From Acidobacteriota bacterium (GTDB taxonomy: Bacteria; Acidobacteriota; Blastocatellia; UBA7656), in the NCBI GenBank assembly GCA_040755335.1, contig JBFMAU010000001.1, positions 1 through 59,080 of the forward strand: DNA of 59,080 bases. Direction: 5' to 3'. The notes under the pieces were generated by a model that did not search any database, was not told the origin of the DNA, and saw only the letters and a list, made by a program, of their open reading frames with translations. Of this stretch, positions 33,454 through 51,337 are shown in pieces. Position numbers and translations under genes: made by a program. How positions within the stretch are numbered: the stretch's first letter is position 1; each line of letters begins with the position of its first letter.

Positions 33454-36400
33454 CTAGAAGCTGACCCTTGCGGCGAACTGAAAAGCGCGCGGGCCGCCTG
33501 ACCCGAAGACCGGATTGACGCGGCCTGTGGGCTGACCGAAGTTGAAGTTGGGATTGCGACCCGGCGTGCCTGCCGGATTGGCTGCGCTCGGCGGAGTGGG
33601 CCGAATGTATGCGTCGAGCGTGCCGCTGAAACCCGTCAGGTTCGCGATGTTGAAGGCGTTGAAAACTTCTCCGATCAAAGAGAGCCTGACTTTTTCGCCT
33701 ATGCGCACAACTCTAGTCAAACGGATATCGTGCGACATGAAACTGTCATCATGGGCGAACTTATCCGGCAACACGATGAACGGGAAGGGAGTGCCAAGGG
33801 CATCGCGGTTCGCGCGATTTCGGATGTCGCGGACGAAGGTATCGGGCGGAGCCGGGAAATTGGCATTGTACTCGGCCACCAGCCGACGAATATCATCGGC
33901 ATCCAGATCATAGCCGAATGAACTGACATCGGTTCCGGGAAGCCGGAAAACGAACGTGCCGTCGCCCTCAGGATCGAGAATGCCCAGAGTGACCGAGGTC
34001 GGAGTCCCTGTTCGCATATCGACTATCGTCGAAACTTGCCAGTCGTTGAGCAAGCCTCGCAAGAATCTGTTATCGCCCTTGTATTTCGGCAACTCCCAGA
34101 TGGCATTGCCCGTGAAGCGATGTCTCGGATTGCCGCCGCTTATGCCGTGACCTTCGTGAAGGCCGTCGTTGTTGGAGATGCCTGTAAAGGTCGTGTAGCG
34201 CGAAAGCGCGTAAGACCCGCCGAGCGTGAATCCATTGGAGAAGCGTTTATCGACCTTGAGTTGCAAAGCGGTGTAGCGCGAGAGTATTCCCGGCAATCCG
34301 TATTGAATCGGGCCGAGCGAGCATTGCGCCCTTGGGTCGAAACGATTGGCCGCAGTGCAGGCCGGTATTACGGGGTTGCGAATGGGAACAGCCGTACCGC
34401 TGGGGAGAATGGTCTGATAGCTGAATCTGTTCCATCGATTCAGGTCGGGGAAGAACAACTCGAAGGCTCCGAATCCGACCCCTCGTCGCTGGACGAAATC
34501 AGCCGAAACCGAGAGGTTGCGTATGATCTCGCGTTGCAGGCCGACATTGAACTGGAGGGTGTAGGGCGTGCGCGAAGAGTCGCTGTTGTAGATCGCATCC
34601 AGATTTCCCGCGCCCGCGACGGTCTTGGAAATATTGACGCCGCGCAGCGAGAGGTCTTGCCCGTTGAATTGCGAGTAGAAAGCCTCTAGCTGCGCTCTCG
34701 CGTTGGCCAGGTAGTTGAGCATATCGAGCAGGCTGAAGGCAGTCGGAGTGGTGAAGCTCAAACATCCTGCCGCGGGATTGGCCGCCACGCTGCCGCAGCG
34801 CGTCAGGCTTTCCGGGTTCTGCAAGGCCGCGCCCGATAGAGACTGCAATCCGTTGCCTGCCGGACCGAAGAGTATCCGCTGGTTGAGATTGAAGAATCCC
34901 ACATTGGGCGAGATGTGGTGAAGTGACGCGCTGGCGCGGATGACCGTCTTTTCATCTTTGCCCACCGCCCACGCAAAACCAACTGCCGGATCGAAGTTCC
35001 CGTACTGCTGTTTCGGCCCTTCGAGATTATCTCCGAGCAGTGGCCGCAGGTAATCGGTGTTAAGGTCGATGTCGTGGTAGAAGACGTTGCTCTCATACGA
35101 CCAGCCCAGTCCGTAGTTGAGTGTGAAGCCCTTGAAGATCTGCCACGCATCCTGAGCGTAGAAGCGGACGTGGTGGTTGCTCGTGGCTTTTTCGTAGTTA
35201 TAGGGCGCTGGCTGTCCGGGGTCTCCTATTCCGATTGTGAGCGTGCCGTTGAGCGGGAGTTGCAGGAGATCCGTAAACGGCACAGGCTGACCTGTCGGGA
35301 CTTTCAGGCTCGCGGGGAGCGCGGCAAACAGCGCGGCATTGGACGCAACCTGAGTCGGACTGAAGGCCGAAAATCCTCCTGCCGCCTGACGGTTCCATGT
35401 GCCATGCCCGTAGGTGTATTCATAGTTGCCGCCGAAGCGAATGCGATGCGCGCCCTTCGTCCAGTTCACGTTGTCCGTCCACTGGAAAGTGCGCGGGTGA
35501 CGATCCTGCGAGACATTGACGTTGGTTCCTACCTGAAGCCCGCCGAAAAAGGAAATGAGCGGGCCGCCCAGTCCGAAGCACAGGCGAGGATCGCCACTCA
35601 CACGTTCGCATTCCTCCTCGGTGGGAGGACGAAGCCGGCTTCTGAAATAGGAATAGGAGAAGCGGAAATCGTTCACCAGTCGGGGAGTGAACACGCTGGT
35701 TAGGCCCATCTGTGTCTGATAGGAGAAATTGCTCGAAGCGATCCACGTAGACTCCAGATTGGTGCCGGAGATGCTGTCATTGGAGTCTATATTGCTTCGG
35801 AGAAAAGCCGTGTGCTTATCGTTGACCGTGTAATCGACGCGCACGCCGAACAGATCGCCTTCCAGCGGTTGCTGCGCGATGTGATTGAATCCGAACAGCA
35901 CCGGATCGGTGAAATTGATCGTGCGCGCTCCAACCTGATCATTGCGTTCGTAGTTGGTGAAGAAGAAGAGCCGGTCTTTTTTGATCGGCCCGCCGAAAGT
36001 GGCTCCATACTGCTTGCGGACGAAGAAAGGATCCTGTAATCGCTCGCAAAGCGCCGGATTGGCGCACAGCGGATTGAAGGCAGTCGGGTCATCGGGACGG
36101 CGGAAGCCCGGAAACGCGGATATGTTGTGGTCGCGATAAAAGAAGAAACCGCTCCCATGAAATTCATTGCCGCCCGTCCGCGATACGATGTTGACCGCCC
36201 CGGCTGAAACCGTTCCCGACGAGAGATCGAACCCGAGAGTGCTGATCTGAAATTCCTGCACCGTCTCGGCGGAAAAGTTCTGCGATGTGCCACCGGTTAT
36301 CCGGTCATTGACCCTCGCTCCATCGACCGATATGACGGTCATCTGCTGAGGAGCGCCGCCGACTGAAATCTGGAAAAAGTTGTTCGGATTCCCGGCGCCG

Positions 36401-36927
36401 GAATTCGGGTTGTAAGTCACGTTGACGCCGGGTTCGAGCAAAGCGATAGACAAAAAGCTCCGCCCGTTGAGAGGAAGATTTTCGACTCGCTCTCGATTGA
36501 TGACCCCTCCGACCACAGTATCGGTGGTGTTGATGATCGGAGCATCAGGCGTCACATCGACTACTTCGCTGGTCGTGCCGACCTCCATAGAGAAATCGCT
36601 CGAAGCTGTGTTGCCGACTTCGACGGACACGGTTTGGGTTTGAGTCTTGAACCCGTCGGCTTCGGCTTTGACCTCATAAGCGCCAGGCAATAGGTTCTCG
36701 AATACGAAGTTTCCTTCGCTCCCGGCCTTGAGTTTTCTCAAAGCGCCGGTCGCTTTGTTGGTAGCCGTTATATTGGCGCTGGTGACTACGGCATCGTTTT
36801 GATCCTTCACCATGCCTTTGATAGCTCCGGTCGCATTTTGAGCCAGCGCCGAAGTTCCCATGCTCATCAGCAATACGGACAAGGCAAGGGCGACTGCGCG
36901 CTGCAGGTAGTTGTGCTTGGACTGCAT
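33454..36927 (-). CDS. TonB-dependent outer-membrane receptor with an N-terminal CarboxypepD_reg domain
   Basis: ATG at 36927 with an AAAGGAGG SD and signal peptide ...MSMGTSALA. GAIKGMVKDQNDAVVTSANITATNKATG...GNFVFENLLPGAYEVK is the CarboxypepD_reg domain. A plug-like region (NGRSFLSIALLEPGV) follows. The barrel ends in the terminal AARVSF (aromatic C-terminus). Confidence 0.88.
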   Translation of the reverse strand: MQSKHNYLQRAVALALSVLLMSMGTSALAQNATGAIKGMVKDQNDAVVTSANITATNKATGALRKLKAGSEGNFVFENLLPGAYEVKAEADGFKTQTQTVSVEVGNTASSDFSMEVGTTSEVVDVTPDAPIINTTDTVVGGVINRERVENLPLNGRSFLSIALLEPGVNVTYNPNSGAGNPNNFFQISVGGAPQQMTVISVDGARVNDRITGGTSQNFSAETVQEFQISTLGFDLSSGTVSAGAVNIVSRTGGNEFHGSGFFFYRDHNISAFPGFRRPDDPTAFNPLCANPALCERLQDPFFVRKQYGATFGGPIKKDRLFFFTNYERNDQVGARTINFTDPVLFGFNHIAQQPLEGDLFGVRVDYTVNDKHTAFLRSNIDSNDSISGTNLESTWIASSNFSYQTQMGLTSVFTPRLVNDFRFSYSYFRSRLRPPTEEECERVSGDPRLCFGLGGPLISFFGGLQVGTNVNVSQDRHPRTFQWTDNVNWTKGAHRIRFGGNYEYTYGHGTWNRQAAGGFSAFSPTQVASNAALFAALPASLKVPTGQPVPFTDLLQLPLNGTLTIGIGDPGQPAPYNYEKATSNHHVRFYAQDAWQIFKGFTLNYGLGWSYESNVFYHDIDLNTDYLRPLLGDNLEGPKQQYGNFDPAVGFAWAVGKDEKTVIRASASLHHISPNVGFFNLNQRILFGPAGNGLQSLSGAALQNPESLTRCGSVAANPAAGCLSFTTPTAFSLLDMLNYLANARAQLEAFYSQFNGQDLSLRGVNISKTVAGAGNLDAIYNSDSSRTPYTLQFNVGLQREIIRNLSVSADFVQRRGVGFGAFELFFPDLNRWNRFSYQTILPSGTAVPIRNPVIPACTAANRFDPRAQCSLGPIQYGLPGILSRYTALQLKVDKRFSNGFTLGGSYALSRYTTFTGISNNDGLHEGHGISGGNPRHRFTGNAIWELPKYKGDNRFLRGLLNDWQVSTIVDMRTGTPTSVTLGILDPEGDGTFVFRLPGTDVSSFGYDLDADDIRRLVAEYNANFPAPPDTFVRDIRNRANRDALGTPFPFIVLPDKFAHDDSFMSHDIRLTRVVRIGEKVRLSLIGEVFNAFNIANLTGFSGTLDAYIRPTPPSAANPAGTPGRNPNFNFGQPTGRVNPVFGSGGPRAFQFAARVSF

Positions 36928-37551
36928 ACACTTTCCTCCTTTTGGCTGCACCATTGGAGAATGATGCGGTGATGTTTGTAGGGCAGGCACGGGCCTGCTC
37001 GCAAACCTACCGAGAGAGGGTGAGCGGAATGATCCTTCCTCTCCATCGAATGGAGGCGAAGCAGTGTGTGAGTGTGTATGCTCCGGTCTCCATCATCCCA
37101 CCCAGGCTGCACATCGAACACGGTCGCTCACTCAGTTTGGTTATAAGTAGAGCGAAAACTGAATCAGAGCGCGCAAATTAGTACAGTATGCGAGCGGAAG
37201 AAATGTGACGGAAACTTCGAAACTGCCATCGAAGCCTTTCTAAGCCAGCACTCTATGCGGATGGTGTTAGTTGTGTCAGAAACAAGACCGGAAAATGTCA
37301 AAGCGAATTTGATGACGAACAAAATCGGATCGCGCAATCTGGAAATCGCGGTTGTCGGATTCGATCCACCACCAATTTCCAGGCAGCGCAACGGGAAGAT
37401 AGTTTCTTCTCGCCGCTTCGATAATCCTCAATGCGCCCGGTATGATCGATGCCATCATTATCCCCAACGGCTTCGAAGCGGGCGCAATCGGATATCGTCA
37501 GCGGAGCCGGATTCTAACATACCTACCGACCGGTCGGCAATACACTTGACC

Positions 37552-37608: not shown

Positions 37609-39837
37609 TCACACGAGCTTATGCTTTCGGAGCGGCAACTCTCTGATGCGCTTCCCCGAAGCGGCGAATACGGCGTTGCAGATAGCGGGCGGAATGGGAG
37701 GCACTCCCGGCTCGCCCACCCCGGCGGGCGGCGCGTCGCTCGAAACTATATGCACGCGCGTCTCAAGGGGAGCCTCGTCGATTCGCGCCACACGATAATC
37801 GTGAAAGTTGGACTGTTGTATCTCTCCTGCGGCAGCCGTGATCTCGCCCATCAGCGCAATGCTTGCTCCAAAGACCGCCGCCCCCTCGAACTGCGCCCTC
37901 ACGCGATCAGGATTGATCACCCGTCCGGCATCTACAGCCACATCGACGCGCGGTATGCGAATCTTCCCCGTCGAATCGATTTCGACCTCGGCCACCACGG
38001 CGACATAAGTCAGAAAACTGTAATGCGCGGCTACGCCGAGCGCGCGCCCTTTCGCAGCTTTCTTCTTAGCCCAACCCGATTCTCTTGCCGCTATTTCGAT
38101 CACGTTGCGCAAGCGCCCCGTCTCAAGCGGATACTTTTCCGCCAGCCTTCCGCGCGCGGCCACATCGACACGTCGAGGCTGACCAACAAGATCGAGCAGA
38201 TACTCCACTCTGTCGCGCCCCGAAAGATGCGCCAGTTCATCGACGAAAGAATGAATGGCGAAGGCGTGCTGGATGTTGGCCACAGAGCGCAGCCATCCTA
38301 TGCGCACGTGATGGCGGGCCGGCCCATTCTCCGCCCTATGGTTAGGGATATCGAACGGTAGGTTAGTCCACCCCATTCCTAATTCGCCTCCGCTGGCCGA
38401 AGCCGTCGCAGGATTGAACGTCGACATCATCGATGGAAACGCGCACCGCTGAAGCCAGGCAGTCGGGCGGCCCTTTTCATCGAGAGCCGCTTTCATATAC
38501 ATGGCCGAAACCGTGTGATAATAATCGAAGCGAATATCGTCTTCGCGCGTCCACGTTACCTTTACCGGTTTGCCTACAGTCTTCGATAGCAGCGCCGCTT
38601 CCGCGACATAATCAGGTTTGGACTTGCGCCCGAATCCTCCGCCTAAAAGAGTGACATGGCACTCGACATTTTTCTTGTCTATGCCGAGCGCGGCGGCAAC
38701 CGTGTCCTGCACGGCCTGCGGATTCTGAGTGGCGGCATAGATCAACGCTTTGCCATCTTTGAAGTGAGCAACAGCCGCGGGCGGTTCCATAGGCGCGTGC
38801 GCAAGATGAGGAACATAGTATTCGGCCTCGTGCGTCTTGCCTCCCTTTGCGAACTCCGCGTCCACATCGCCCACATTGCGCGCGGCTCTTTGCGGCTTGC
38901 GGACGGTCTCAATCAACTGTTGTTTGTAGCTCGCTGAATCATAGCTGGCATTCTCACCCGGTTCCCATTCGACCTTGAGACGTTCGCGGCCCTGCATCGC
39001 AGACCATGTGTTAGAGGCGATGACGGCCACGCCGCCCAGAGCCTTGAATCCATGCGGAGGAGTAAATCCTTCGATCACTACCGTCCGCTCGACGCCCGGC
39101 ACTTTGCGCGTTTCCTGATCGTCGAAACTTTTCATCCGCCCGCCAAGCACAGGCGACCGCTCAATCGAGGCATAGACCATCCCCGCCATCTGCGCATCAA
39201 TGCCGAATATGCCTCTTCCTGAGCATAAATCTTCGCGGTCGACTATCGGCACGTCTTTGCCTATGTAGCGATACTGGTCTTTGGATTTGAAACTCAACTC
39301 TTCTCTACGGGGCGCGGTCTGCTGCGCCGCAAGCTGCGCGAGTTCTCCATAACCAAGTTTTCGCCCGCTGCCCGCATGCACGACCACGTGATTCTGCGCT
39401 TTGCATTCTGCCATCGGCACGCCCCATTTTGCCGCCGCCGCTCTTTCGAGCATCAATCGGGCCGCGGCTCCCGCTTCTCGCATAGCGTCGTAAAAATCTC
39501 GTATCGAGCATGAGCCGTCCGTGTTTTGCGAGCCGTATTTGGCATCGCCTATGGCCTGCTCGACCCGGACTCGCTTCCAGTCCGCGTCTAACTCTTCGGC
39601 GACGATGGTCGGCAGGACTGATCTTATGCCCGTTCCCATCTCCGAACGATGAGCCACTATTATCACAGTGCCGTCAGTCTCCACTCCGAGATAAACGCTC
39701 GGATGCCACGCGGCTTTATCGATGTCGATAGCGGTCATCGCTTCGACGGGAAGGACTCGCGCGGCCAGCACAAAAGCCGAGGCAGAGAACATGCTGCCGA
39801 GAAAGGCGCGACGATTTATGACTTCGACTCTATTCAT
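37609..39837 (-). CDS. Molybdopterin-binding large subunit of an IorB / aldehyde-oxidase-type hydroxylase, Tat-exported
   Basis: The ATG at 39837 overlaps the upstream stop (ATGA). Tat motif [19 protein letters not shown]. The sequence has the length and motifs of the isoquinoline 1-oxidoreductase beta / membrane aldehyde dehydrogenase large subunit family. Confidence 0.85.
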
Positions 39838-40295
39838 TTCTTCACCTCCGCTGCCAGTTTGATCGCCTGTCTTATTCGCTGATAGGTTCCACACCGACAG
39901 ATGTTGCCGCGCATCGCCGCGTCTATGTCAGAGTCCGTCGGTTTGGGTTTTTGACGAAGCAGCGCGGCGGCCTGCATGATCTGTCCGCTCTGACAATAGC
40001 CGCACTGCGAGACGTTGACCTCAATCCATGCCTGCTGCAACGGATGGCTTCGGTCGGCGGAGAGACCTTCGATAGTGATGATCTTTTTGCCGACGGCGCT
40101 TGAAACCGGCGTGACGCATGAGCGGACGGCCTGACCGTTTATATGAACGGTGCAGGCTCCGCACTGAGCCATGCCGCAGCCGAACTTTGTGCCTGTAAGA
40201 CCAAGTGTGTCGCGCAGCACCCACAGCAGAGGCATGTCGGGGCTGACTTCGACCGATTGTTCCTTTCCGTTGACGTTGATTTTGATGGCAGTCAT
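39834..40295 (-). CDS. (2Fe-2S)-binding small subunit (IorA-like)
   Basis: 153 aa with [11 protein letters not shown] and [10 protein letters not shown]...CRCGTY cluster motifs. Confidence 0.9.
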
Positions 40296-40711: not shown

Positions 40712-42778
40712 TCACGGCAAGCGCAGCGCGATTAGCTGAGGCGTATTGGTCGCCACCGTCAGCGCGATGTATTGCTTGCCGCCAAGCATATAAGTCATCG
40801 GCGTGCTTATCGCGCTTGCGGGCAGAGAGACCCACGCAACGGCTTTGCCTGTCGCCTTGTCGTAAGCCACAAGCTTAGGCCCTTCGCCGTCTGATTCCGT
40901 CACCGCTCCGTCCATAGCCTGAATCAAAAGCGTCTTGGTCACGAGCGGCCCTCTCGCTCCGCCTCCGCCCAGTGGAGGCAACTTCACGCCCTTGAGCGCA
41001 GGGTGATTGCGAATGCGCGATGCTCCAATACCTATGGGCGTCATCCAGACGTGTTCGCCTTTGTTCAAATCAATGGCAGTCATTCGCGTGTACGGCGGTT
41101 TGAAGAGCGGCAACCCCTGCGGGCCGCGAGGCACTTCGCCCCCAACCTTGTGAGTGTAGCGCACAGTTCCGCCCTTTGCCGTGTCAGGAGTGTAAAAGTG
41201 AATGGTCGATGTTCCGTTGCGCGATGGAACATAGAGAATACCCGTCTCAGGATCGACGGCTGCTCCCTGCCAGTTCGCTCCGCCCGCTTCACCCGGTCTC
41301 GAAATCGTCCCCTTCGTGCCGCCTTCGATATCGAGCGAGGGCGGAGTGAACAACGGCCCTACGCGAAACTTCTTTAGCGTCTGCATAGCCTCTGCGCGAA
41401 GTTCAGGAGTGAAATCGATCAGATCGTCAACTGATACGCCCTGATATTCGAAAGGCGCGGGCCGCGTGGGAAAAGGCTGAGTCGGTGAGGCGCGCTCGCC
41501 AGGAACATCGGATGGGGGAACTGCGCGCTCTTCGATAGGCCAGACAGGTTTTCCCGTCACTCGATCAAAGACGAAACAGAAACCCTGCTTGGTCACTTGC
41601 GCGACCGCTTTGATGCGCTTTCCATCTACGGTGATATCGACGAGATTCGGCGCAGCAGGATTGTCATAATCCCAAAGCCCGTGATGAACCGTCTGAAAAT
41701 GCCAGACGCGACGGCCCGTCTCCACATCGAGGCAGATGAGGCTTTCGGCGAAGAGATTGTTTCCCAGTCGATGCCCGCCGTAAAAATCATTCGTCGGCGT
41801 CCCCGTTGGCAGATAAACATATCCAAGCTCATCATCCGCGCTCATCATCGACCAGACATTCGTGTTGCCCGTGTATCGCCACGAATCCTGCTCCCACGTC
41901 TCGACGCCGAATTCGCCTTCGCGCGGGACGGTGTGAAAAATCCATTTCAGTTTGCCTGTCACGACATCGAACGCCTGCACATCACCGGGCGGAGCCTCTT
42001 TCGTTATGCGGCGGTCTGAAATGGCGGAACCTACGATGACCGTGTTGCGACACACAACGGGCGGAGAGGTCACGGAATAAGTGAGCGCGTTGAGGTAGTC
42101 GCGATCTTTGCGTGAGGCGCGCGGAATATGTTTCATCAGATCGACGCGCCCTTCTTCCCCGAAGTCCTTACAGGGCCTTCCGGTCTTCGCATCGACTGCG
42201 ATCAGGTAGCCGTCGCCCGTTCCCCAGAGGATTCTCGCCTGCCTGCCGTCGCTCCAGTAAGCCGCCCCCCGATGATTCCACTGAAAGCTCATCGTGGGCG
42301 TTCCCGTCTCATAGCTTTTTGGATTGTAGACCCAGACGGTTTCGCCCGTAGCCGCATCAACGCCTACGGCCTGAGACAGAGGAGTAACGAGATAAAGCAT
42401 TCCGCCGACCATCAGGGGAGTGGCTTTGAGCGCATCGTTCCACGGAGGGCGTTTTTCTCGCCATCGAGCCGGATTATCTTTTTGAAGGTCTTCGAATATG
42501 TTGTCTGCTTTCGTCCACCATTCGCCGCCGGAAACATTTTTGCTCAAGGTTTCATCGACCGTCTTCCACGCCCATGCGATTTGCAGCTTTGAAAAGTTGT
42601 CGCGGTTGATCTGATCGAGAGGAGAGTATTTCGCGCTGGTGTTATCTCCGCCGTAAGCGGGCCACTCGCCCGTTGGTTTGCCGTTCTCGGCAAGGCTCGA
42701 AATACCGGAGAGAGCAAGCGCGAGGCAACCAAGCGCAGCCCATTGACAGATTCGGCGAAAGGTCGTTCGATGATTCAT
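40712..42778 (-). CDS. Soluble (signal-peptide) PQQ-dependent dehydrogenase of the glucose/quinate/shikimate family
   Basis: Start at codon 11 ([30 protein letters not shown]). Motifs [13 protein letters not shown] and [17 protein letters not shown] (the mGDH-type signature), plus repeated beta-propeller W-motifs. It lacks the N-terminal 5-TM anchor of membrane GDH. Confidence 0.85.
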
Positions 42779-42828
42779 CTTGCAGCGTCCGGCAATTCGG
42801 TTCCTCACTCACGCCCTCCATCTCAGGT

Positions 42829-43263
42829 TCACTTACTTGGTTGTTTAGGGCCGAGGCTTCGAAGGAAGTTGATCACATGCCACATCTGTTTTTCCGTGAG
42901 GCGATCCTTGTAGCTTTCCATGTCGGCGCTCGTTCCGTCGCGTATGACGACGAATATCTCGCCGTCGCTCGATCCGTGATCCCACACTTCATCGACGAGA
43001 TTTGAGGGCGTCCCTCCCGCAAGCGCCATCCCCCCGTCTCCCTTTGCCTGCGGGCCGTGACACGAAGCGCAATGTCGCAGATAAATTTTGCGGCCCTCTT
43101 CAATCGAAGCTGCGTCGACAGGAACAGGGTTTTTGATCTTCTGCGCCTCCGGGTGACGATGCGGCTCGACGGGGTGCGATTGCTGCCCCGCAATCACCCC
43201 GGCCATCGCGAAAACACTCAACACCATAATCAACCAGCGCCGCATCACGTTCCTCCTATTCAT
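42829..43263 (-). CDS. Exported class I c-type cytochrome
   Basis: Signal peptide, CASCHG heme motif, downstream Met ([10 protein letters not shown]). Confidence 0.85.
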
Positions 43264-43717
43264 CAGATACGTCGAAATTCTCGATCAGATATTCCGCCTC
43301 CCTCTCTCTCAGATGCACGAACACTTCATGCACGAGATTGACCGCCTTGTTCACTCCGTAAGCCCATTGATTATTTTTTATCCTGAGAGCGAGAGAAACC
43401 CGTCCGCCTCGATTATTGCAAACGATCTCGGCGCGCTTCGCGTCGACGCGACGATGCGGGGGCAACTCTTCGTCGTATCGCTGCCGCAAAAATTTTTTCA
43501 AATCCCGGTACATCGCCGAGCGCGCCGCGACATTCGGCAGAAGGTTTTTGAATCTCAACTCCCGCTTTTCAGCGTCAACAACGAACTCAACCGGACGCGG
43601 CGTCAGCCAGACGAAAGAAAAAACTCCCGTCCTGATCTCGCTCAGTCCGCGAAACACTCCCCGGTCTGCATAAACCTGAAGCGCGTCTCTTACGATCTTC
43701 AAAGATTTCTTTGCCAT
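43256..43717 (-). CDS. Hypothetical protein (no signal peptide, no recognisable domain)
   Basis: 153-aa ORF with protein-like composition. It overlaps the cytochrome c start by 8 nt. Confidence 0.55.
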
Positions 43718-43839: not shown

Positions 43840-45780
43840 TCAGTGATAATAAGACATGCATCCCGGCTCGGTCTTTCCGAGAAACCCCGGTGGATTTTCG
43901 CGCAGCCAGAATTCTTTCTTCGCCTGACAATTTATCACCGAAGGCCGACTTTCCCTGACCGCGATTTGATAACACCTTTCGAGCGCAGGTCGAAAATCCT
44001 CAGCCCTCGTGACGTATTCGCCATGCGCGCCGAGAGCTTCGCCGACTTTATCGTAGCGGACGTTTTCCTGAAACAGGTGCATGCTCAACGTGACCGGATT
44101 CGCTCGATTGCCGTTCCACGTTCCCCATGCGTTGTTGTTGTAAACGATCACTATCACAGGCAATCGATACTTCGAGAGTGTCTCCATCTCCATAGCCGTA
44201 TATCCGAATCCGGCATCGCCCGTCACGCACACTATGGGATGACCCTGATATGGTTTCTGCACGCTGATCCCATGTCGAACCGCAGCCGCCACTCCTATCG
44301 AATATCCCACATCAGGCCCGATGGCTCCGTACTGATACGCGCCGTTCATGATCTGTCCCGGTCGATATCCGCGAAGCCATCGCCTCACGTAACGAGCTAT
44401 CCCATATCCGCCTGATACGACGGTCGTCTGCTCTTTTGGAATCTTTCCGCGATAGAGGAAATCGCCCAACTCTTTTGCTATCACTGCCGGATGAACAGCA
44501 TCCGTGTAGCCGAGTCCTTGTTTGTAAATCACATCGAGTTCGTCCTCGAATTTCTTTCGCGCCGCCGCTATCTCTGCAATCCATGCATCATGCTTCATCG
44601 CGGGCATCTCGCCAGAAAGGGCTTCCAGAGCCGCGCGCTCGCAACTCACGATTCCGATATCGATGGGCAGATTGCGCCCTATGTCTTCCGCCTCGGGGTC
44701 TATGCGAATGTATTTGGCGTCAGGCCCGAAAGCGAATTCGCCAATGGTCGGCATGCAGTATTGACCGACGAGCAGAACCACATCCGCGCTTGCAAGCGCA
44801 GAGGGCGCGGCATTGGCCGACAGTGGAGAAGCGTCGGAGAATTGTCCTTTCATCGCGCCGGATTCGACGACAGGTATCTGCGCTTTTTCCGCCAGACTCT
44901 TCAATGCATCCCACGCGCGACTGTAAAAGACTCCGTTGCTCGAAACGATCATAGGTCGCTCGGCCTGCTTGAGCATCTCGACTGCCGCTCGAATGTCTTT
45001 CGGAGCGGGGTGAGGCTTCGCTTCCGTTCGATACCTCGACTTGTCGTAGTAATAATTCAGATCAGCCGCCGTCTTGAACTGCGCGCGATAGACCTCACTC
45101 GGAAAATCTATGTGAACCGGACGCGGCACGCCCGACCTCAATTGCCGGAATGCGTAAGCGGTGTACTCGGAAATGCGCGAGGGGATGATGAGCCGTTTGC
45201 CATACTTTTTCAATCCTTCTGTGGCGGGTTGTTGATACTGAAGCTGAATCCCCGATTCGGTGTCTTCCTGTTGAATCGACATGTTCGAAGCGAGAACGAG
45301 AAGAGGAGTGCGCGCGGCGTTGGCAGCGGCGATAGCGCATATCATATCCGAGAATCCCGGCCCTTCGGTTCCTGATGTTGCGGCTATCTCTCCGGTCACG
45401 CGGATGAAAGCGTCTGCGGCGTGACACATCGCTCCTTCGTGTCTGCCCGAGTAAGCGGGTATGCCTTCCTGCGCAATGGCGTTTATGACGTTGTAATTTC
45501 CCGGACAGCAAAATAACGCGGCCAGACCTTCTTCTTTGCACATGCGGGCGAAGACCTGCGCGCCGGTCATCGGAAAATTGGCTTTCACGGGCGCGGCTTT
45601 TGCTGCGAGCGCGAACTCATCGGGAATCTTTATGGGTCGCGCTGCGTCCGATGAGTCAGAAGCCGAAGCTTTGCCTGCGCCAAGAGAGGCCGCCGCGCCT
45701 GCGGTGATGGCTGCTTTGGCGATGAAGTTTCTTCTTGAGAGATTCGCCTCGCTCTGTTTCGAACCTTTAGACTTTCCCAT
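43840..45780 (-). CDS. Thiamine-diphosphate-dependent enzyme (acetolactate synthase / benzoylformate decarboxylase superfamily) carrying a twin-arginine signal peptide
   Basis: N-terminus ...[28 protein letters not shown] (S-R-R-x-F-I-K Tat motif + h-region + AxA). [13 protein letters not shown] carries the catalytic Glu. The ThDP motif is [33 protein letters not shown]. Confidence 0.85.
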
Positions 45781-45847
45781 AAAGCTCCCCCATGAAAAAT
45801 GAAGACGCCGGATGCTGGATCGGATTTTGTTTCAGTGTACGAAACAA

Positions 45848-45918
45848 ATTTGGAGTGCGGTGACTTGTCACCGCTTTTCATTCAAACAAAAGCTGCGACA
45901 AGTCGCAGCACTCCAAAA
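45848..45918. repeat. TTTGGAGTG...CACTCCAAA palindromic element, family B (copy 2)
   Basis: TTTGGAGTGCGGTGACTTGTCACCGC ... GCTGCGACAAGTCGCAGCACTCCAAAA. Confidence 0.85.
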
Positions 45919-45961: not shown

Positions 45962-46513
45962 TTATGACGCAGGTTTCGCATCGACCTTTTGAAACCACGG
46001 ATTGCCGAAATTCGTCCACGGCCCGCCGTCGACCGATATTTGAACCTGCAAGCGATAGTAGGCCGGAGACAGCATCAGCGTCTTGCCCTTGAGTTTTATC
46101 GTCCTGCCATTTTTTTTGATAGGCGCGCTCTCCCAGTGAATGGTGTAATACCCGCCGAGGTCGCCTCCAATAGGGCCGGTCTTTGTCACCGTCACGCCGA
46201 AGAGTCCGGTCTCCTGACGTGTGACGATCTTTTCTTTTTCGTTATAAGATATCTTCGCGCGTCCCTTGAAAGCTCCCACTGGCCCTGTGCCTTCTATGTC
46301 GCTTTCATAAGTTGCCGCTTGAATTTTCCTGTATGTTTCTTTGCCTTTGATCTTGCCCGCAGGGCCGAGAGGCGATTCAGGCACGTTCCATTCGAATGTC
46401 CACGCGCCGAGAAAATAATCCATATCGGGCGGAGGCATAGGATCGTTCGGGTCGGTCGGACGACTCTGGGGTTGTTGCGATAAAACGAGGGCTAGTAAGA
46501 GTGCGATTATCAT
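45962..46513 (-). CDS. Small exported protein of unknown function (possibly DUF1579-like)
   Basis: ATG at 46513 ([14 protein letters not shown]). [13 protein letters not shown] resembles the DUF1579 N-terminal motif, but the match is weak. Confidence 0.55.
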
Positions 46514-46520
46514 TGTCTTT

Positions 46521-46581
46521 CGTCCGTTGTCCGTTGTCTGTTGTCCGTTGTAACAAACGACTGACAACTGACAACGGACAA
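46521..46581. repeat. Hairpin built from heptamer tandem repeats (TCCGTTG)x4 and their complement (CAACGGA/CAACTGA)
   Basis: CGTCCGTTGTCCGTTGTCTGTTGTCCGTTGT-aacaaacgac-TGACAACTGACAACGGACAA. Confidence 0.85.
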
Positions 46582-46588
46582 ATAACAG

Positions 46589-48034
46589 CTATTGCTTTTT
46601 AGCCACTTCTTTCGTCAGGTCTTTGCTATCGACGGTGTACTCGAACCACGGTATGAACATCTCGTCCCAACTCTGTTCGCTCCAGAAGACTTCCTTGTTG
46701 GGCGCGGGATTGTATCGATTTTTGATCGAGTTATCGTAGTGAGCGACGGCCACGAGTCGGCTGCCCGCGGGAATTTTCAACGGACGTTCAAGCTCATAAT
46801 GCAACTGCCAGTTGAAATCGAATCGAGGCACATCGAGGAGTATCTGCTGGCGACCGTCGGGCCAGATGAGCGTGTAGCGGACATCCTTGCCGCGCAGGTG
46901 CATGTGCGGAGCGAAGGCATAAAGTGTGATCGCCTCTTTGATCGTCACTTCGCCGCTTATCTCCCAGTTATCCGCGTTGGGCGGAATGTTGGGGATGCGG
47001 CCTCGCACCTTGACTTCCTTGCCGTTGACCATGCGGGTCTCGACGAGTTCCTTGCCGCCGATGAATATTCGGTCAGTCACTCCCTTGGTCAGCACTTCGT
47101 GGGTTACGCGAGTTTTCGAAAACCAGAGTCCGAGCATCGAGCGATCTTTTTCGGGGCGACCCGTGGGCTGATAGTGCATGTTGAATTGAAAATACATGCC
47201 GGGAAGCACTCGCTTGGCCGTTCCGGGGAAATGCCGCTCGAAGCCTTTGCCGGGAGCCTGTCCGACAAGCTTGAACGCGCCTGCGCGAGTGAAGGAATCC
47301 TGACTCTGAAAAACTTCGCGCGATCCGCCATCACGCGGCGCGGCTCCTTCGCTCAATCCCCCTGTCTCTCTGGCCGACCGATTATCAACCGGAGTCGCGG
47401 AGCCGTCTCTCACCGCGCGACCGTTGACGAGTTTGCTTCCTTCAGGCAATCGCACCACGTTGGCGATAGAGTGATGCACGACTGCTGAGTTTCCCGGACG
47501 CAACTCCACGGTTTCCACCCATCGCTCTTCAGTGAAGGGAACAGGCACATAGAAATTCTGCATGGGCAATTCGCCTTCGGCAGGCACTTCGAATTCTACG
47601 GGCATGGGTATGATCAAATCCGGCTCGCCGAACGTCCAACCGGGAGTGAATCGGGGCAGAGGCGGCAGATCGGAATCTCGCCCTTTCGGCGCTCCCGCAT
47701 CTACCCATGCGACTATGGTGTCGATTTCAGCTTGAGTGAGCCGCCGGTCGTTGTGGAACTTGAGAGTCGAGGTATGAGGATCGGCATACCACGGCGGCAT
47801 AGTGCGTTCAAGCACTTCTTCCTTTATGGCTTTGCTCCAAGGGCGCACTTCCGCGAAGGAGGTGAGCGGCATGGGAGCGACTTCGCCCGCGCGGTGACAG
47901 GTGGCGCACTTGTTGAAGATGATCGGCGCGACATCCTTTGCGAAAGTGGGCGCTGCGGGTTTGTCGGCGCTGCTTGTGTTTATGAAAGTCGCAGCAGCAG
48001 CAAAGGCGATAGCGGTCGTGAGCCAGCGTTTCAT
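46589..48034 (-). CDS. Exported heme-c domain fused to a PHM/DBH-like binuclear copper monooxygenase core (paralog 1)
   Basis: ATG at 48034 with a GGGAGGAG SD, followed by a signal peptide. [15 protein letters not shown] is the CxxCH heme motif. The copper ligand pattern is [18 protein letters not shown] and WDEMF, in the order and approximate spacing of the PHM CuH (HH, H) and CuM (HxH, M) sites. Confidence 0.7.
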
Positions 48035-48054
48035 CTCTCTCCTCCCTCTCAGAT

Positions 48055-48125
48055 GTGGCGCAAGTCGAGCTTGCGTGGCCCGAATTTTCACACCTTCAGC
48101 ATGCGCAATCTGACAGATTGCGCCA
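48055..48125 (-). repeat. Double-hairpin element, family D (copy 2)
   Basis: GTGGCGCAAGtcgagCTTGCG ... GAATTTTCACACCTTCAGC ... ATGCGCAATC-tgaca-GATTGCGCCA. It fills the spacer between the two monooxygenase genes. Confidence 0.85.
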
Positions 48126-48128
48126 CTG

Positions 48129-49427
48129 CTATTTGGAACCGGCTTTCGCGTTGAGCCGGAGGTCCTGTTTGTCGAGCGTATAATCGAGATAGCCGATCAT
48201 CATCTCCTCCCAGGTCTGCGGCCCCCACTCTACGAGCTTCGTCGGATCGGGATTGAATTTGTTCTTTGCCGAGTTATCGAAGTGCGCCACGCATTCCAAT
48301 CGACTGCCCTTAGGCGCGGCCACAGGCTCTTTGAAGAAATAAGTCTGTTGCCAGTTGAAGTCCCATCGCGGAACTGAAAGAAGCAGTTTCGATGCGCCGT
48401 CCGGGTAGACCAGCCGAAAGGAAAAATCCTTGCCTCGCATGTGCATGTGCGGATGCAGGCTGTCGATGTGACTGTCTTCCTTGAAGGTGAAAGAAGATTT
48501 CACCTCGTAATTCGGATCGCCGGGAGGGATGGCCAGAGAGCGTGCGAAAGCTCCCGCCGTGATGACGCGCTTCTCGACCGCCGCTCGCGAGAATATCAGC
48601 CCGACGCTTGAGCGGTCTGTGCCTGCGACGCCGTTTGTGGTGTAGTGAACCTGAAATACAAGCACGGAGCCTTTCTTGATGAGCTTGGCCTGACCGGGAT
48701 GCAGAATCAGAGGCGCTTCGCCCGGAGCCCAGCCCACGAGTCTGCCATCGGAATCGCCTGCTCGCGCGCCCTCTCCTCCACCCTGCTGGCGCGAGGCTGC
48801 CAGTCTTTCAGGCGTGATTTCTCCTGCTGGCGGCAACTGTCCCTGACCGGGATAGCGGACATCGACGATGATGTGATGGACGAGTTGGCGATTGCCCTGT
48901 CGAATCTCGGCAAACTGCACATACTTGTCTTCGGTGAAGTTGGTAGGCACGGCGAAATACTTATAAGGGATCACTCCTTCAGCCGGAACCGAGTATTCTT
49001 CGGTCATCGATAAAACCACATCGGGTTTGCCTATAGTCCATCCTTCGGTGAATTTGGGAAGAGGCGGAAGGTCGCGCGGGTCGCCTTCGATAGCGCCGCC
49101 GTTGACCCAGGCAGTGATCGTATCTATCTGCTTTTGCGATAAACGACAATCATTCGAAAATTCGGTATGCTGCTGGTCGGCAAACCAGGGGGGCATCCTT
49201 CGTTCGGCCACGACTTCGCGAATCGATTTAGCCCACGGGCGGACTTCCTTGTAGGTGACGAGCGACATAGGCGCTACTTCGCCCGCGCGGTGACAGGTGA
49301 TGCAGTTGTTATAGAGTATCGGCGCGACATCTTTGGTGAAAGTCATTCGTGTGTCGCTGCTGTTTGTCAGGCCGGTCGCCAGCAACACGCAAGCGAAAGC
49401 GCAGGCGAGGCCGAATAGTCGTTTCAT
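48129..49427 (-). CDS. Exported heme-c domain fused to a PHM/DBH-like copper monooxygenase core (paralog 2)
   Basis: Signal peptide, then [15 protein letters not shown]. Copper ligand pattern [23 protein letters not shown]. It is collinear with paralog 1. Confidence 0.7.
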
Positions 49428-49706: not shown

Positions 49707-50195
49707 TCAGAAAAGGATCGAACGAACGCGCTGGCGCAAACGATCAAGTTCGTCTGCGTTGTGTTGAAGCAGATCGTGTCCCCATCCCGATGTCGTATAG
49801 GTTTCTTCCCGGCACTCCTTTGCCAACACTGAACCTATAGTTTCGTAAGAGCCAAGCTTGGCTTTCTTGAGGTCTTCGGGGTTAGTCAGCGTGCCGAGGA
49901 CAAAAACTCTATCAGCCAAATCTTCGGGAATGAATTTTTTCCCAAACCTTAGTTTGAACTCCACCTTGCCGTCGAAGTCGATCAACAGAACCATGAATCG
50001 ATCAGGATAGCGATTCATTTCAGCGATGTGATCTGACTTGAAAAGCTCGAATACTTTCTTCCAACCGCGAGCCACCGGAAGCACACGCATTTGATTCTGT
50101 TGGTCAACACTCAGGAGAAAGCTGATTGCCAATTCGCTGTCAGCAGCGTCTTCGGGCAGCACCAAAACATGCGGTAGATTCTTGTTGATGCTCAT
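49707..50195 (-). CDS. Small acidic-motif protein, possible minimal Toprim/RloB-like partner of the upstream ATPase
   Basis: 162 aa. Its start overlaps the ATPase stop by 4 nt. HVLVLPE(15)DAADSE and VLLID(73)FD(75)G mimic the Toprim Glu ... DxD pattern. The codon usage is A/T-richer than in neighbouring genes. Confidence 0.5.
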   Translation of the reverse strand: MSINKNLPHVLVLPEDAADSELAISFLLSVDQQNQMRVLPVARGWKKVFELFKSDHIAEMNRYPDRFMVLLIDFDGKVEFKLRFGKKFIPEDLADRVFVLGTLTNPEDLKKAKLGSYETIGSVLAKECREETYTTSGWGHDLLQHNADELDRLRQRVRSILF

Positions 50196-51337
50196 GGTTC
50201 GACATCGCCGCGAATCAGCGCGTTGATCAGATCTCCGCTGATTTGAAGTTCATTGATAGGTCGAATGATCGTAGGTTCAAAATGGTTTCTCCTGTGAAGG
50301 TAAAGGATATTTTCACTGGAGAAATGCCGAACGGTCTCCTGATTATGCGAGGTTGCTATGAACTGGCCGCCCGACTGAAACGCTTTGCGAAGAGCCAGCA
50401 CAAAATGCCCGACTTCGTCTATGGCAAGATAATTGTCCGGCTCATCCCAGAAACAAAGCAGCGGCCCGTAAGCATCATTCGCGGCAAGCACCAAGGCGCA
50501 TATCATAAAACATTTCTCGCCGTCCGAGAGATCTTCGAACGGCAGGCTCATGCTTCCCTGCTCGGTTGAAAACTGGACTACAAGACTTCGATAATCTTTG
50601 CCTATCTCTGGATTCTTAATGTCCTTAAAGTCTCTTATCTCCTGCTTGAGATACTTGTCGATCTTGACGTAAGCGGCGGGCGCGTAGGCCAGCAGACCTG
50701 AAAACCATGCGCCAAAGTCTTTGACCTGTGTATCCGTATGCAACGTCTCTTGTGTGGATTCTCCTGTAATCAGACCAGGTATAGGTCGAAGGATAAGCAT
50801 ACGAGCGAGCCATTGCTTGAAAATGAACAGAGGGTCGTTCGGCGACTGTTCCTGAACTATCGGCAGAGCCACCAAGTGCCAGTCGATCAGGAACTTCGCC
50901 TCCCCCTCCCCTCTCGTTTTCGCAAGATGCACCTGCGCTTTTTCTCGCGTGTAGACAGGCTTGCCGTCAACAGCCAGTTTCTCTTCGAATACACGTAGTT
51001 CTTTAAATCCGCTGGGAAATTCAAAAGCGATAACGTACTCGTATATCTCGCCCTCCAATTCAACTTCGATCTCGAATCGCATAGGCACATCTGTGCGTCC
51101 GCGAGTGAAGTCTTTAGGCTTCGCAAGTTCGCTCACCCGGTTCGTGCCTCGCGCTATCTTCTGTAGAATCTCCAGCGCAAGTCCGACCGCCGTTTTTCCC
51201 GATCCGTTTTTTCCTATCAGCAGGACGGACGAATGGCCCGCGATTGGCAACTCGAAGTTTTCCAGACACCGGAAGTTGTGGACGTAAAATCGTCTTATCA
51301 CGAGGGGATGATACTGCGCTTTTGAAGGCAGGCTCAA
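50192..51337 (-). CDS. ABC/SMC-type (AAA_15/AAA_21-like) ATPase
   Basis: N-terminal FYVHNFRCLENF, Walker A GKNGSGKT (residues 42-49), LSDGEK signature-like motif, Walker B LLCFWDEPD, H-loop ATSHN. The start is a TTG at 51337 with no obvious SD, so the start is uncertain (an alternative GTG is at 51301). Confidence 0.8.
   Translation of the reverse strand: MSLPSKAQYHPLVIRRFYVHNFRCLENFELPIAGHSSVLLIGKNGSGKTAVGLALEILQKIARGTNRVSELAKPKDFTRGRTDVPMRFEIEVELEGEIYEYVIAFEFPSGFKELRVFEEKLAVDGKPVYTREKAQVHLAKTRGEGEAKFLIDWHLVALPIVQEQSPNDPLFIFKQWLARMLILRPIPGLITGESTQETLHTDTQVKDFGAWFSGLLAYAPAAYVKIDKYLKQEIRDFKDIKNPEIGKDYRSLVVQFSTEQGSMSLPFEDLSDGEKCFMICALVLAANDAYGPLLCFWDEPDNYLAIDEVGHFVLALRKAFQSGGQFIATSHNQETVRHFSSENILYLHRRNHFEPTIIRPINELQISGDLINALIRGDVEP

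Follow-up and report, generated by a model that had tools for sequence, protein, structure and literature searches.

A predicted Tat-dependent ThDP enzyme encoded in a conserved three-gene module with a c-type cytochrome in Acidobacteriota

The locus

This analysis concerns a gene for a thiamine diphosphate (ThDP) dependent enzyme, which lies with the gene for a 153-residue protein and a cytochrome c gene in a stretch of DNA from an Acidobacteriota bacterium (Blastocatellia, UBA7656). The stretch, called the window below, comprises positions 1 to 59,080 of contig JBFMAU010000001.1 (GenBank assembly GCA_040755335.1, forward strand) and is 59,080 nucleotides long. An earlier note on this DNA, made from its letters, had described a complete ThDP enzyme at 43840-45780 that begins with a canonical twin-arginine (Tat) signal peptide. 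The features of the three genes are listed here in window coordinates.

42829..43263, minus strand: 144-residue monohaem c-type cytochrome with the haem motif CASCH and an N-terminal signal (Pfam Cytochrom_C and Cytochrome_CBB3; CxxCH)
43256..43717, minus strand: 153-residue basic protein that lacks a signal peptide and matches no Pfam or NCBIfam family (302 homologues, synteny, AlphaFold 2 model)
43840..45780, minus strand: ThDP-dependent enzyme precursor of 646 residues (open reading frame and Pfam)
44131..44220, minus strand: ThDP-Mg binding motif GDAG-X23-NNN, residues 521-550 (read from the sequence; columns invariant in alignment A1)
45571..45660, minus strand: conserved linker of the mature N-terminus, residues 41-70, P-I-K-I-P-D-E-F ... 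F-P (alignment A1)
45661..45780, minus strand: twin-arginine signal peptide, residues 1-40 (TIGR01409; h- and c-region statistics in 130 relatives)
45730..45735, minus strand: codons of the two arginines of the signal peptide
45785..45791, minus strand: Shine-Dalgarno-like GGGGGAG (read from the sequence), which ends 4 nucleotides 5' of the ATG at 45780

The mature form of the enzyme has a mass of about 66 kDa. It matches the Pfam families TPP_enzyme_N (residues 71-175), TPP_enzyme_M (263-388) and TPP_enzyme_C (466-618), all above their gathering scores, which gives the PYR, middle and PP layout of the ThDP decarboxylase (POX/ALS-like) superfamily. The catalytic glutamate is E115, found in an RHE motif within the stretch 113-123. 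The cofactor motif consists of GDAG at 521-524, a further 23 residues and NNN at 548-550; this is the canonical GDG-X24-NN spacing, and the GDAG-X26-NN reported earlier is corrected accordingly. In an alignment of 24 sequences (A1) Glu115, GDAG521-524 and NNN548-550 are invariant, and E115, D522 and N548 are kept in the outgroups described below as well. The gene encodes a complete ThDP enzyme in which the catalytic glutamate and the cofactor motif are intact, as the earlier note had it.

The twin-arginine signal

Tat is a pathway that exports folded, cofactor-loaded proteins. The N-terminus of the ThDP enzyme begins with a polar, positively charged n-region, followed by S15-R-R-N-F-I-A-K, a 14-residue hydrophobic (h-) region rich in alanine, glycine and threonine, and Lys37 in the c-region, with cleavage predicted at A38-S39-A40/S41. 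Residues 14-40 match the model TIGR01409 (TAT_signal_seq) with 20.8 bits, the curated cut-off being 16.7. The Tat consensus S/T-R-R-x-F-L-K stands at the boundary of the n- and h-regions, and the h-region and cleavage site also have the properties of a Tat signal.

This anatomy is kept across 130 relatives. The position before the arginines is S or T in 129 of them, and the phenylalanine at +2 of S/T-R-R-x-F-[ILMV] is found in all 130. The h-region bears no charge; its median length is 16 residues and its Kyte-Doolittle hydropathy averages 1.24. It is followed by a small-x-small cleavage site in 128/130 and closed by a basic residue in 59/130. Of the 120 database proteins most similar to the enzyme (76-94% identity, about 650 residues) 117 have S/T-RR-x-F, the remaining three being truncated gene calls. 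In a more divergent branch of relatives the RR motif is present in 71 of 72 N-terminally complete open reading frames (ORFs), typically as P-S-R-R-G-L-F or S-S-R-R-D-F-L, and one protein of this branch carries a precomputed match to TAT_signal (PF10518). The canonical Tat signal of the earlier note is thereby borne out.

The signal is followed by a 30-residue linker, which is absent from the outgroups. I50, P53, F69 and P70 of the linker are invariant in A1, and I50 and F69 are specific to the clade. The RR pair and the linker motif I-P-x-E-F are both kept, so that residues 1-70 are conserved as protein clade-wide. The next in-frame methionine, M71, is exactly at the start of the ThDP domain. 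The earlier note had allowed that the true start might lie downstream of the arginines, or that homologues might lack the signal. Neither is the case: the RR pair and linker are kept as protein in the 117 close homologues, R16 and R17 in at least 95% of the clade and the RR motif in the divergent-branch ORFs counted above. From these features the protein is, with high probability, an exported ThDP enzyme.

Clade boundary and distribution

An exhaustive HMMER search was made against 1.84 billion cluster representatives. The full-length representatives of the clade reach 894, 655 and 603 bits, with alignments that begin at query residues 10-19, and the next matches score at most 239 bits. The outgroup proteins are 540-600 residues long and at most 34% identical, their alignment starts at residue 71-73, and they have the ThDP domain first with no N-terminal extension. 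Over the catalytic body, 237 clade members aligned with 27 outgroups show at least 50% identity inside the clade and at most 34% between clade and outgroup. R16 and R17 belong to a set of 86 residues kept by 95% or more of the clade and by no more than 15% of the outgroups. About 200 N-terminally complete relatives, spread over two branches, carry a Tat signal. Because of the sharp boundary in score and identity, together with the clade-specific R16 and R17, the predicted Tat signal is a defining trait of a distinct clade, the nearest relatives of which are predicted to be cytoplasmic. The clade also has an invariant C-P-G-N-Y where relatives have 'GGH', and an invariant C-terminal His646 on a conserved tail.

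The branch to which the window belongs is found in Blastocatellia, Vicinamibacteria and related acidobacterial metagenome-assembled genomes (MAGs), with 260 loci in species-representative genomes. The locus closest to the window gene, at 94%, is labelled Chloracidobacterium sp. UBA7656. The second, divergent branch is 50-66% identical to the first and is found in Bryobacteraceae, Acidoferrales, Acidobacteriia and some MAGs labelled Planctomycetota. Some genomes have one copy from each branch, as with P0501 and L021, which stand on contigs of equal length (3,285,244 bp) in one MAG. Beside the loci in species-representative genomes the family comprises thousands of metagenome proteins, which now carry the misnomer 'acetolactate synthase-like'.

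Some genomes have two copies of the ThDP gene, for example L066 and L072 of the same MAG (SMAG_U1379). L072 and another copy, L061, have no detectable cytochrome or 153-residue protein gene nearby, and therefore paralogues may share one set of partners. One protein of the representative library (P0125, 655 residues) is a divergent clade member of 48% identity, which has RHD for the catalytic RHE, AQYGG for GTEGPG and F-P-E-E-I-F-L for S-R-R-x-F-L. Possible explanations are a paralogue that is degenerate or not exported, and an artefact of assembly or gene calling.

A conserved three-gene module

Gene orders are given below with T for the ThDP enzyme, U for the 153-residue protein and C for cytochrome c. 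In the window T is followed after 122 nucleotides by the ORF of the 153-residue protein, which overlaps the cytochrome ORF by 8 nucleotides. The same arrangement was sought in 62 loci of the close branch with at least 3.5 kb of downstream flank. The cytochrome gene is present in 59/62 and the 153-residue protein gene, adjoining T, in 57/62; both occur in the order T-U-C in 56/62.

In the divergent branch the cytochrome homologue is found directly upstream of T and the homologue of the 153-residue protein directly downstream. The ORF of the latter, taken from its first possible start codon, often starts 3 to 22 nucleotides before the stop codon of the ThDP gene. Among 80 loci of this branch the order is C-T-U in 49, U-C-T in five and T-U-C in three, and the other 23 loci, most of them on short contigs, have incomplete sets (T-U, C-T or T alone). 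The locus L164 also has the order U-C-T and encodes proteins with 41% and 40% identity to those of the window. The 153-residue protein gene adjoins T in nearly all divergent loci with enough flank. The cytochrome gene is adjacent to T in 97 of 101 loci with enough flank (59/62 close, 38/39 divergent), through three gene orders, and the cytochrome is about 145 residues long across the module loci.

The module is thus found in about 100 loci. As the three genes remain linked despite three rearrangements and in sequences of as little as 50% identity, we regard the set as a functional unit, and very probably the three genes form a functional module.

Two apparent losses were considered and rejected. 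Loss of the cytochrome in the divergent branch was suggested by its presence downstream in only 6/51 loci, but clustering of the flanking ORFs places it immediately upstream. Loss of the 153-residue protein gene in nine divergent loci is an artefact of over-extended ORF starts. A covariation check found the linker motif I-P-x-E-F kept in loci that seem to have no gene for the 153-residue protein. No fused cytochrome-ThDP protein was found among 102 ThDP reading frames.

The 153-residue partner protein

All 302 homologues detected for the 153-residue protein are annotated as hypothetical, and they are acidobacterial wherever a taxon is given. Many of them are encoded on contigs whose length equals that of contigs with a ThDP homologue. 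No match was found in Pfam, NCBIfam or the sequences of the PDB, profile searches included. An AlphaFold 2 model gives a confident alpha/beta fold (pLDDT 92.5), for which the best Foldseek matches in the PDB are the class I type III secretion chaperones ExsC, Spa15, InvB, SycH, SycT and SpcU. A type III secretion chaperone was considered as its identity, and is weakened by the basic pI. Membership of the TorD/DmsD or NapD families was found neither by sequence nor by fold, which makes it less likely that the protein is a TorD or NapD but has no bearing on whether it functions in the same way.

As its gene is closely coupled to that of the enzyme, probably at translation, a stoichiometric partner is more likely than a regulator. 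From the model and the synteny we consider the protein a candidate for a dedicated cytoplasmic maturation or export chaperone, or for a subunit that hitch-hikes with the enzyme.

Neighbouring genes

The other features around the module are the following.

33454..36990, minus strand: 1178-residue protein with CarboxypepD_reg and an outer-membrane beta-barrel, similar to TonB-dependent transporters, downstream of the redox cluster
37609..40295, minus strand: IorAB/PaoABC-like molybdenum hydroxylase pair (linked to the ThDP module in 3/62 loci)
40712..42808, minus strand: 698-residue dehydrogenase dependent on pyrroloquinoline quinone (PQQ), with a signal peptide, 20 nucleotides 3' of the cytochrome gene (Pfam PQQ, E = 3e-196)
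45892..45909, minus strand: terminator-like hairpin GCTGCGAC-TTGT-GTCGCAGC then TTTTGTTTG, between the 201-residue protein gene and the ThDP gene (consensus scan)
45962..49427, minus strand: three genes for secreted proteins upstream of T (signal peptides, CxxCH, weak Pfam matches)
45962..46567, minus strand: the first of these, a 201-residue secreted protein with a faint DUF1579 match
46589..48091 and 48129..49427, minus strand: the other two, paralogous secreted haem-motif proteins with a CxxCH...MPPW N-terminal segment and a weak C-terminal Cu2_monoox_C match (PHM/DBH-like)

The ThDP gene had been placed earlier among periplasmic dehydrogenases, and this description is upheld by the PQQ dehydrogenase, the cytochrome c, the molybdenum hydroxylase with a Tat signal and the haem proteins nearby. 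The 761-residue molybdenum cofactor (MoCo) binding subunit of the hydroxylase has its own Tat signal, INRRAFLG, and the organism therefore uses Tat for other periplasmic redox enzymes. The [2Fe-2S] subunit of the hydroxylase (153 residues, 39834..40295) overlaps the longest ORF of the 761-residue subunit by 61 nucleotides.

A PQQ dehydrogenase of some type is found within 10 kb in 35/62 loci of the close branch, and one of these neighbours is a quinohaemoprotein. In the divergent branch other beta-propeller dehydrogenase types recur. Each dehydrogenase type is confined to at most about half of the loci, and the two branches have different types. The trio of secreted proteins upstream of T lies near the module, in either orientation, in about half of the close-branch loci (Cu432-like proteins in 34/62, the 201-residue protein in 26/62).

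The accessory genes were examined for clues to the substrate. They encode PQQ dehydrogenases, proteins similar to DUF1080/3-keto-disaccharide hydrolases, a GMC oxidoreductase with a Tat small subunit, VOC/glyoxalase-like and luciferase-like proteins and TonB-type outer-membrane proteins. None of these occurs throughout, and the set varies by branch. The outer-membrane protein of the window has a sequence-unrelated analogue of 1221 residues (L115 5151..9050), which in 11/80 divergent loci is encoded after the triad and in the same orientation, and these outer-membrane neighbours hint at a substrate that is imported across the outer membrane. At a single locus (L002 6245..8436) a GMC-family dehydrogenase is encoded after a 168-residue protein with the twin-arginine motif RRKFLG, just upstream of the ThDP gene; this layout is that of gluconate 2-dehydrogenase and glucoside 3-dehydrogenase and is compatible with keto-sugar substrates. 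A gene for a luciferase-like (LLM-class) cytoplasmic oxidoreductase, which has no signal peptide, is present between T and U or just upstream of T in 13/62 close-branch loci (for example L003 11948..12784 and L001 6816..7673).

A new transcription unit may begin after the hairpin at 45892..45909. The total of terminator-like sites in the region is near the number in shuffled sequence, so the hairpin is only suggestive. It is one of two adjacent hairpins at 45857..45909 with 7-bp stems on opposite strands, GCGGTGAC-TTGT-CACCGC and GCTGCGAC-TTGT-CGCAGC, both with T-rich tails, which could together be a bidirectional terminator. Further upstream, at 49707..51337 on the minus strand, a 381-residue AAA_21/AAA_15 ATPase with AbiEii-like matches overlaps by 4 nucleotides a 162-residue protein of no known family. 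This pair may be a defence or toxin-antitoxin-like system unrelated to the ThDP module.

Proposed function of the module

Enzymes of this fold bind ThDP at the dimer interface and form a carbanion/enamine on the cofactor that can be protonated, ligated or oxidised. The c-type cytochromes mature only outside the cytoplasm. The 153-residue protein and the cytochrome are invariant companions of the ThDP gene while the dehydrogenases are variable, therefore an oxidative role is favoured over that of a plain decarboxylase or carboligase. On balance we lean towards the view that the ThDP enzyme is the catalytic part of a conserved three-gene periplasmic module and that it oxidises its substrate via the cytochrome c. 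The periplasmic ThDP decarboxylase or carboligase put forward in the earlier note is thus retained in its location, by sequence prediction, and refined in its chemistry, where the invariant partners speak for an oxidative role.

The module might work as follows. From sequence and Tat biology, the enzyme would fold, dimerise and bind ThDP-Mg2+ in the cytoplasm, and would be exported by Tat via its S-R-R-N-F-I signal, which would be cut after A-S-A40. The 153-residue protein, judged by synteny and fold, would be a chaperone dedicated to maturation or export in the cytoplasm, or would leave the cell with the enzyme as a co-exported small subunit. In the periplasm the family chemistry of ThDP would lead to a carbanion/enamine on the cofactor, either by decarboxylation of a 2-oxo acid or by cleavage of a C-C bond next to the carbonyl of an alpha-hydroxy-ketone or alpha-diketone, and the substrate would be imported or made by the neighbouring periplasmic dehydrogenases. 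This intermediate would then be oxidised to a carboxylic acid, with two electrons passing to the dedicated monohaem cytochrome c and on to the respiratory chain. The last step is suggested by synteny, and we see the chances for and against a direct redox coupling of enzyme and cytochrome as about even. More tentative still is the fuller proposal of a ThDP:cytochrome c oxidoreductase, which would be the first extracytoplasmic ThDP family, possibly flavin-free and served by a new type of chaperone, and which might act on a 2-oxo acid (oxalate, glyoxylate or a keto-sugar acid) or an alpha-hydroxy-carbonyl compound.

Several points weigh against oxidation through the cytochrome. The motif GDAGFGYT and the best matches in the PDB and NCBIfam place the enzyme with the non-flavin group of oxalyl-CoA decarboxylase (OXC), 2-hydroxyacyl-CoA lyase (HACL) and benzaldehyde lyase (BAL), and no member of the fold family is known to pass electrons from ThDP to haem unless a flavin or Fe-S centre relays them. 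There is no Fe-S site, the universally conserved cysteines being limited to C81 and C92; an Fe-S electron relay was considered and rejected, as these are the only cysteines conserved across both branches. The PQQ or other dehydrogenases frequently found in the neighbourhood could be the ones that the cytochrome serves. At about 132 kDa a ThDP dimer comes close to the largest sizes known for Tat cargo, and the AlphaFold 2 model of the enzyme (24 close homologues, pLDDT 55) is too poor for use. For the 153-residue protein the chaperone matches are weak (E = 2e-3, TM-score about 0.5), DNA-binding 'double-wing' domains appear among the matches as well, and with a median pI of 9.7 the family is basic where the type III secretion chaperones are acidic.

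The alternatives differ in how much of this they would change. If the start had been mis-called, translation would begin at M71, which is position 1 of the Pfam TPP_enzyme_N model, and the product would be an ordinary cytoplasmic acetolactate-synthase-like protein. We give this almost no credence, because residues 1-70 are conserved as protein: the RR pair, F19, I50, P53, F69 and P70 are invariant across the two branches down to 50% identity, the extension is part of all independent gene calls of homologues (about 650 residues each), and a Shine-Dalgarno-like sequence lies 5' of the ATG at 45780. It is also quite improbable that the enzyme works in or at the cytoplasm, held by an uncleaved membrane anchor or carrying a Tat-like sequence with another role. 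The h-region is indeed weakly hydrophobic by its mean Kyte-Doolittle value, and ThDP and the typical 2-oxo acid substrates are cytoplasmic. The signal nevertheless has the full Tat consensus and passes the threshold of the curated Tat model, the small-x-small site and the basic c-region residue recur among the 130 relatives at the frequencies given above, the conserved partner is a cytochrome of the type that matures outside the cytoplasm, and most of the recurrent neighbours have signal peptides.

A more serious competitor accepts the export and assigns to the enzyme a non-oxidative lyase, decarboxylase or carboligase reaction, which is the model of the earlier note. The cytochrome c would then be the acceptor for PQQ, GMC or molybdenum dehydrogenases that make or consume the substrates of the ThDP enzyme, comparable to the operon of the periplasmic polyvinyl alcohol (PVA) dehydrogenase, oxidised-PVA hydrolase and cytochrome c. 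The enzyme is nearest to non-redox families (OXC, HACL, BAL and formolase) and has GD(A/S/G)xFG in common with them, and the frequent PQQ dehydrogenases of the close branch, one of them itself a quinohaemoprotein, and the beta-propeller types of the divergent branch would fit this role of the cytochrome. Against this, the cytochrome gene stays beside T in all but four of the 101 loci and in all three orders while the dehydrogenase types reach about half of the loci at most, and loci such as L003 and L164 carry the triad with no dehydrogenase in their flanks. We consider a non-oxidative enzyme rather unlikely, because the cytochrome tracks the ThDP gene and not any dehydrogenase.

To our knowledge every characterised ThDP enzyme of this fold is found in the cytoplasm or an organelle matrix. 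No report of a periplasmic or Tat-dependent ThDP enzyme was found in the full-text literature, most subscription journals being outside its coverage. The window enzyme joins a known fold and a known export route in a manner not described before, with two dedicated partners, of which the 153-residue protein belongs to a family without an assigned function. If the export is true, ThDP joins molybdopterin, Fe-S, Ni-Fe, copper, flavin, NADP and cobalamin as a cofactor carried by Tat. If the oxidation is also true, oxidative C-C cleavage or decarboxylation would have a new extracytoplasmic route, through a ThDP enzyme coupled to a c-type cytochrome. Soil Acidobacteria could then break C-C bonds in the periplasm and conserve energy in doing so, and carbon turnover would be linked to respiration in the abundant, poorly cultured Blastocatellia, Vicinamibacteria, Bryobacteraceae and Terriglobia.

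Comparison with known systems

The closest solved structures by sequence are those of OXC and HACL, BbmA, BAL with formolase, and glyoxylate carboligase. No NCBIfam equivalog is reached by the enzyme, the best match giving 206 bits against a cut-off of 587. The OXC models NF006721 and TIGR03254 give 201.4 against 557 bits and 186.6 against 739.4 bits, and the HACL model NF058623 gives 162.5 against 600 bits. The acetolactate synthase model TIGR00118 gives 169.4 against 538 bits and every model for that enzyme stays far under its cut-off, therefore the public names 'acetolactate synthase large subunit-like' are unsupported.

OXC and HACL (PDB 8VZJ, 7PT1-4, 2Q27, 2C31) match residues 61-620 with phmmer E-values of 1e-45 to 1e-44, and PRK05858 and OXC are the top NCBIfam matches of the enzyme. 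They share with it the three domains, the catalytic glutamate and GD(x)xFG...NN. The active-site, acid/base and CoA residues of AcHACL were taken from the literature (PMC8760513) and mapped through a HMMER alignment of about 25% identity, in which single positions are approximate. Q128 of AcHACL corresponds to Q179, whereas the acid/base residue E493 is replaced by Trp555, which is invariant in the clade. The CoA ligands Q255, R273, S274, R362 and R417 correspond to G308, P326, S/G327, K410 and R466. The positions of the AcHACL/OXC nucleotide site are N282, Q340, P362 and D366 in the enzyme, all of them invariant. With only two of the five mapped CoA ligands retained and E493 replaced, CoA-dependent chemistry is unlikely in the clade, and independence of CoA fits a compartment that has none. 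OXC and HACL are cytoplasmic or peroxisomal and act on CoA thioesters, while the clade has the Tat signal, the 30-residue linker and the cytochrome c and 153-residue partners.

BAL (PDB 2AG0) and formolase are 27% identical over the whole catalytic body. BAL is a CoA-independent ThDP lyase and carboligase that acts on alpha-hydroxy-ketones and has a cofactor-free middle domain. Among the residues of BAL with known roles the catalytic His29 is replaced in the clade by an invariant Tyr96, and Gln113 is retained as Gln179. Ala28 corresponds to Asn95, His415 to Tyr484 and Ala480/Thr481 to Thr554/Trp555; the W-G that follows the NN motif is shared as W552-G553. BAL is cytoplasmic and has no redox partner. 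The predicted active site of the clade is distinctive by these comparisons.

Pyruvate oxidase and PoxB (PDB 1POX and 3EY9) belong to the same fold superfamily and are much more distant (E = 1e-15 to 1e-20). Both oxidise hydroxyethyl-ThDP and pass the electrons to a respiratory chain, which makes them a functional analogy for the oxidative role proposed here. They differ in their FAD relay, their quinone or O2 acceptor and their place on the cytoplasmic side.

The organisation of the module resembles torCAD, which encodes a cytochrome (TorC), a Tat enzyme (TorA) and a small protein without a signal (TorD), the same three roles, with the cofactor loaded before export. This gene order is C-T-U, the commonest order of the divergent branch (49/80). 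The 153-residue protein has no similarity in sequence or fold to TorD, DmsD or NapD. The cofactor of TorA is molybdopterin where that of the module is ThDP, and TorC is a pentahaem protein where the cytochrome of the module is small and has a single haem. In the module, compared with torCAD, the electrons would run from the substrate to the cytochrome.

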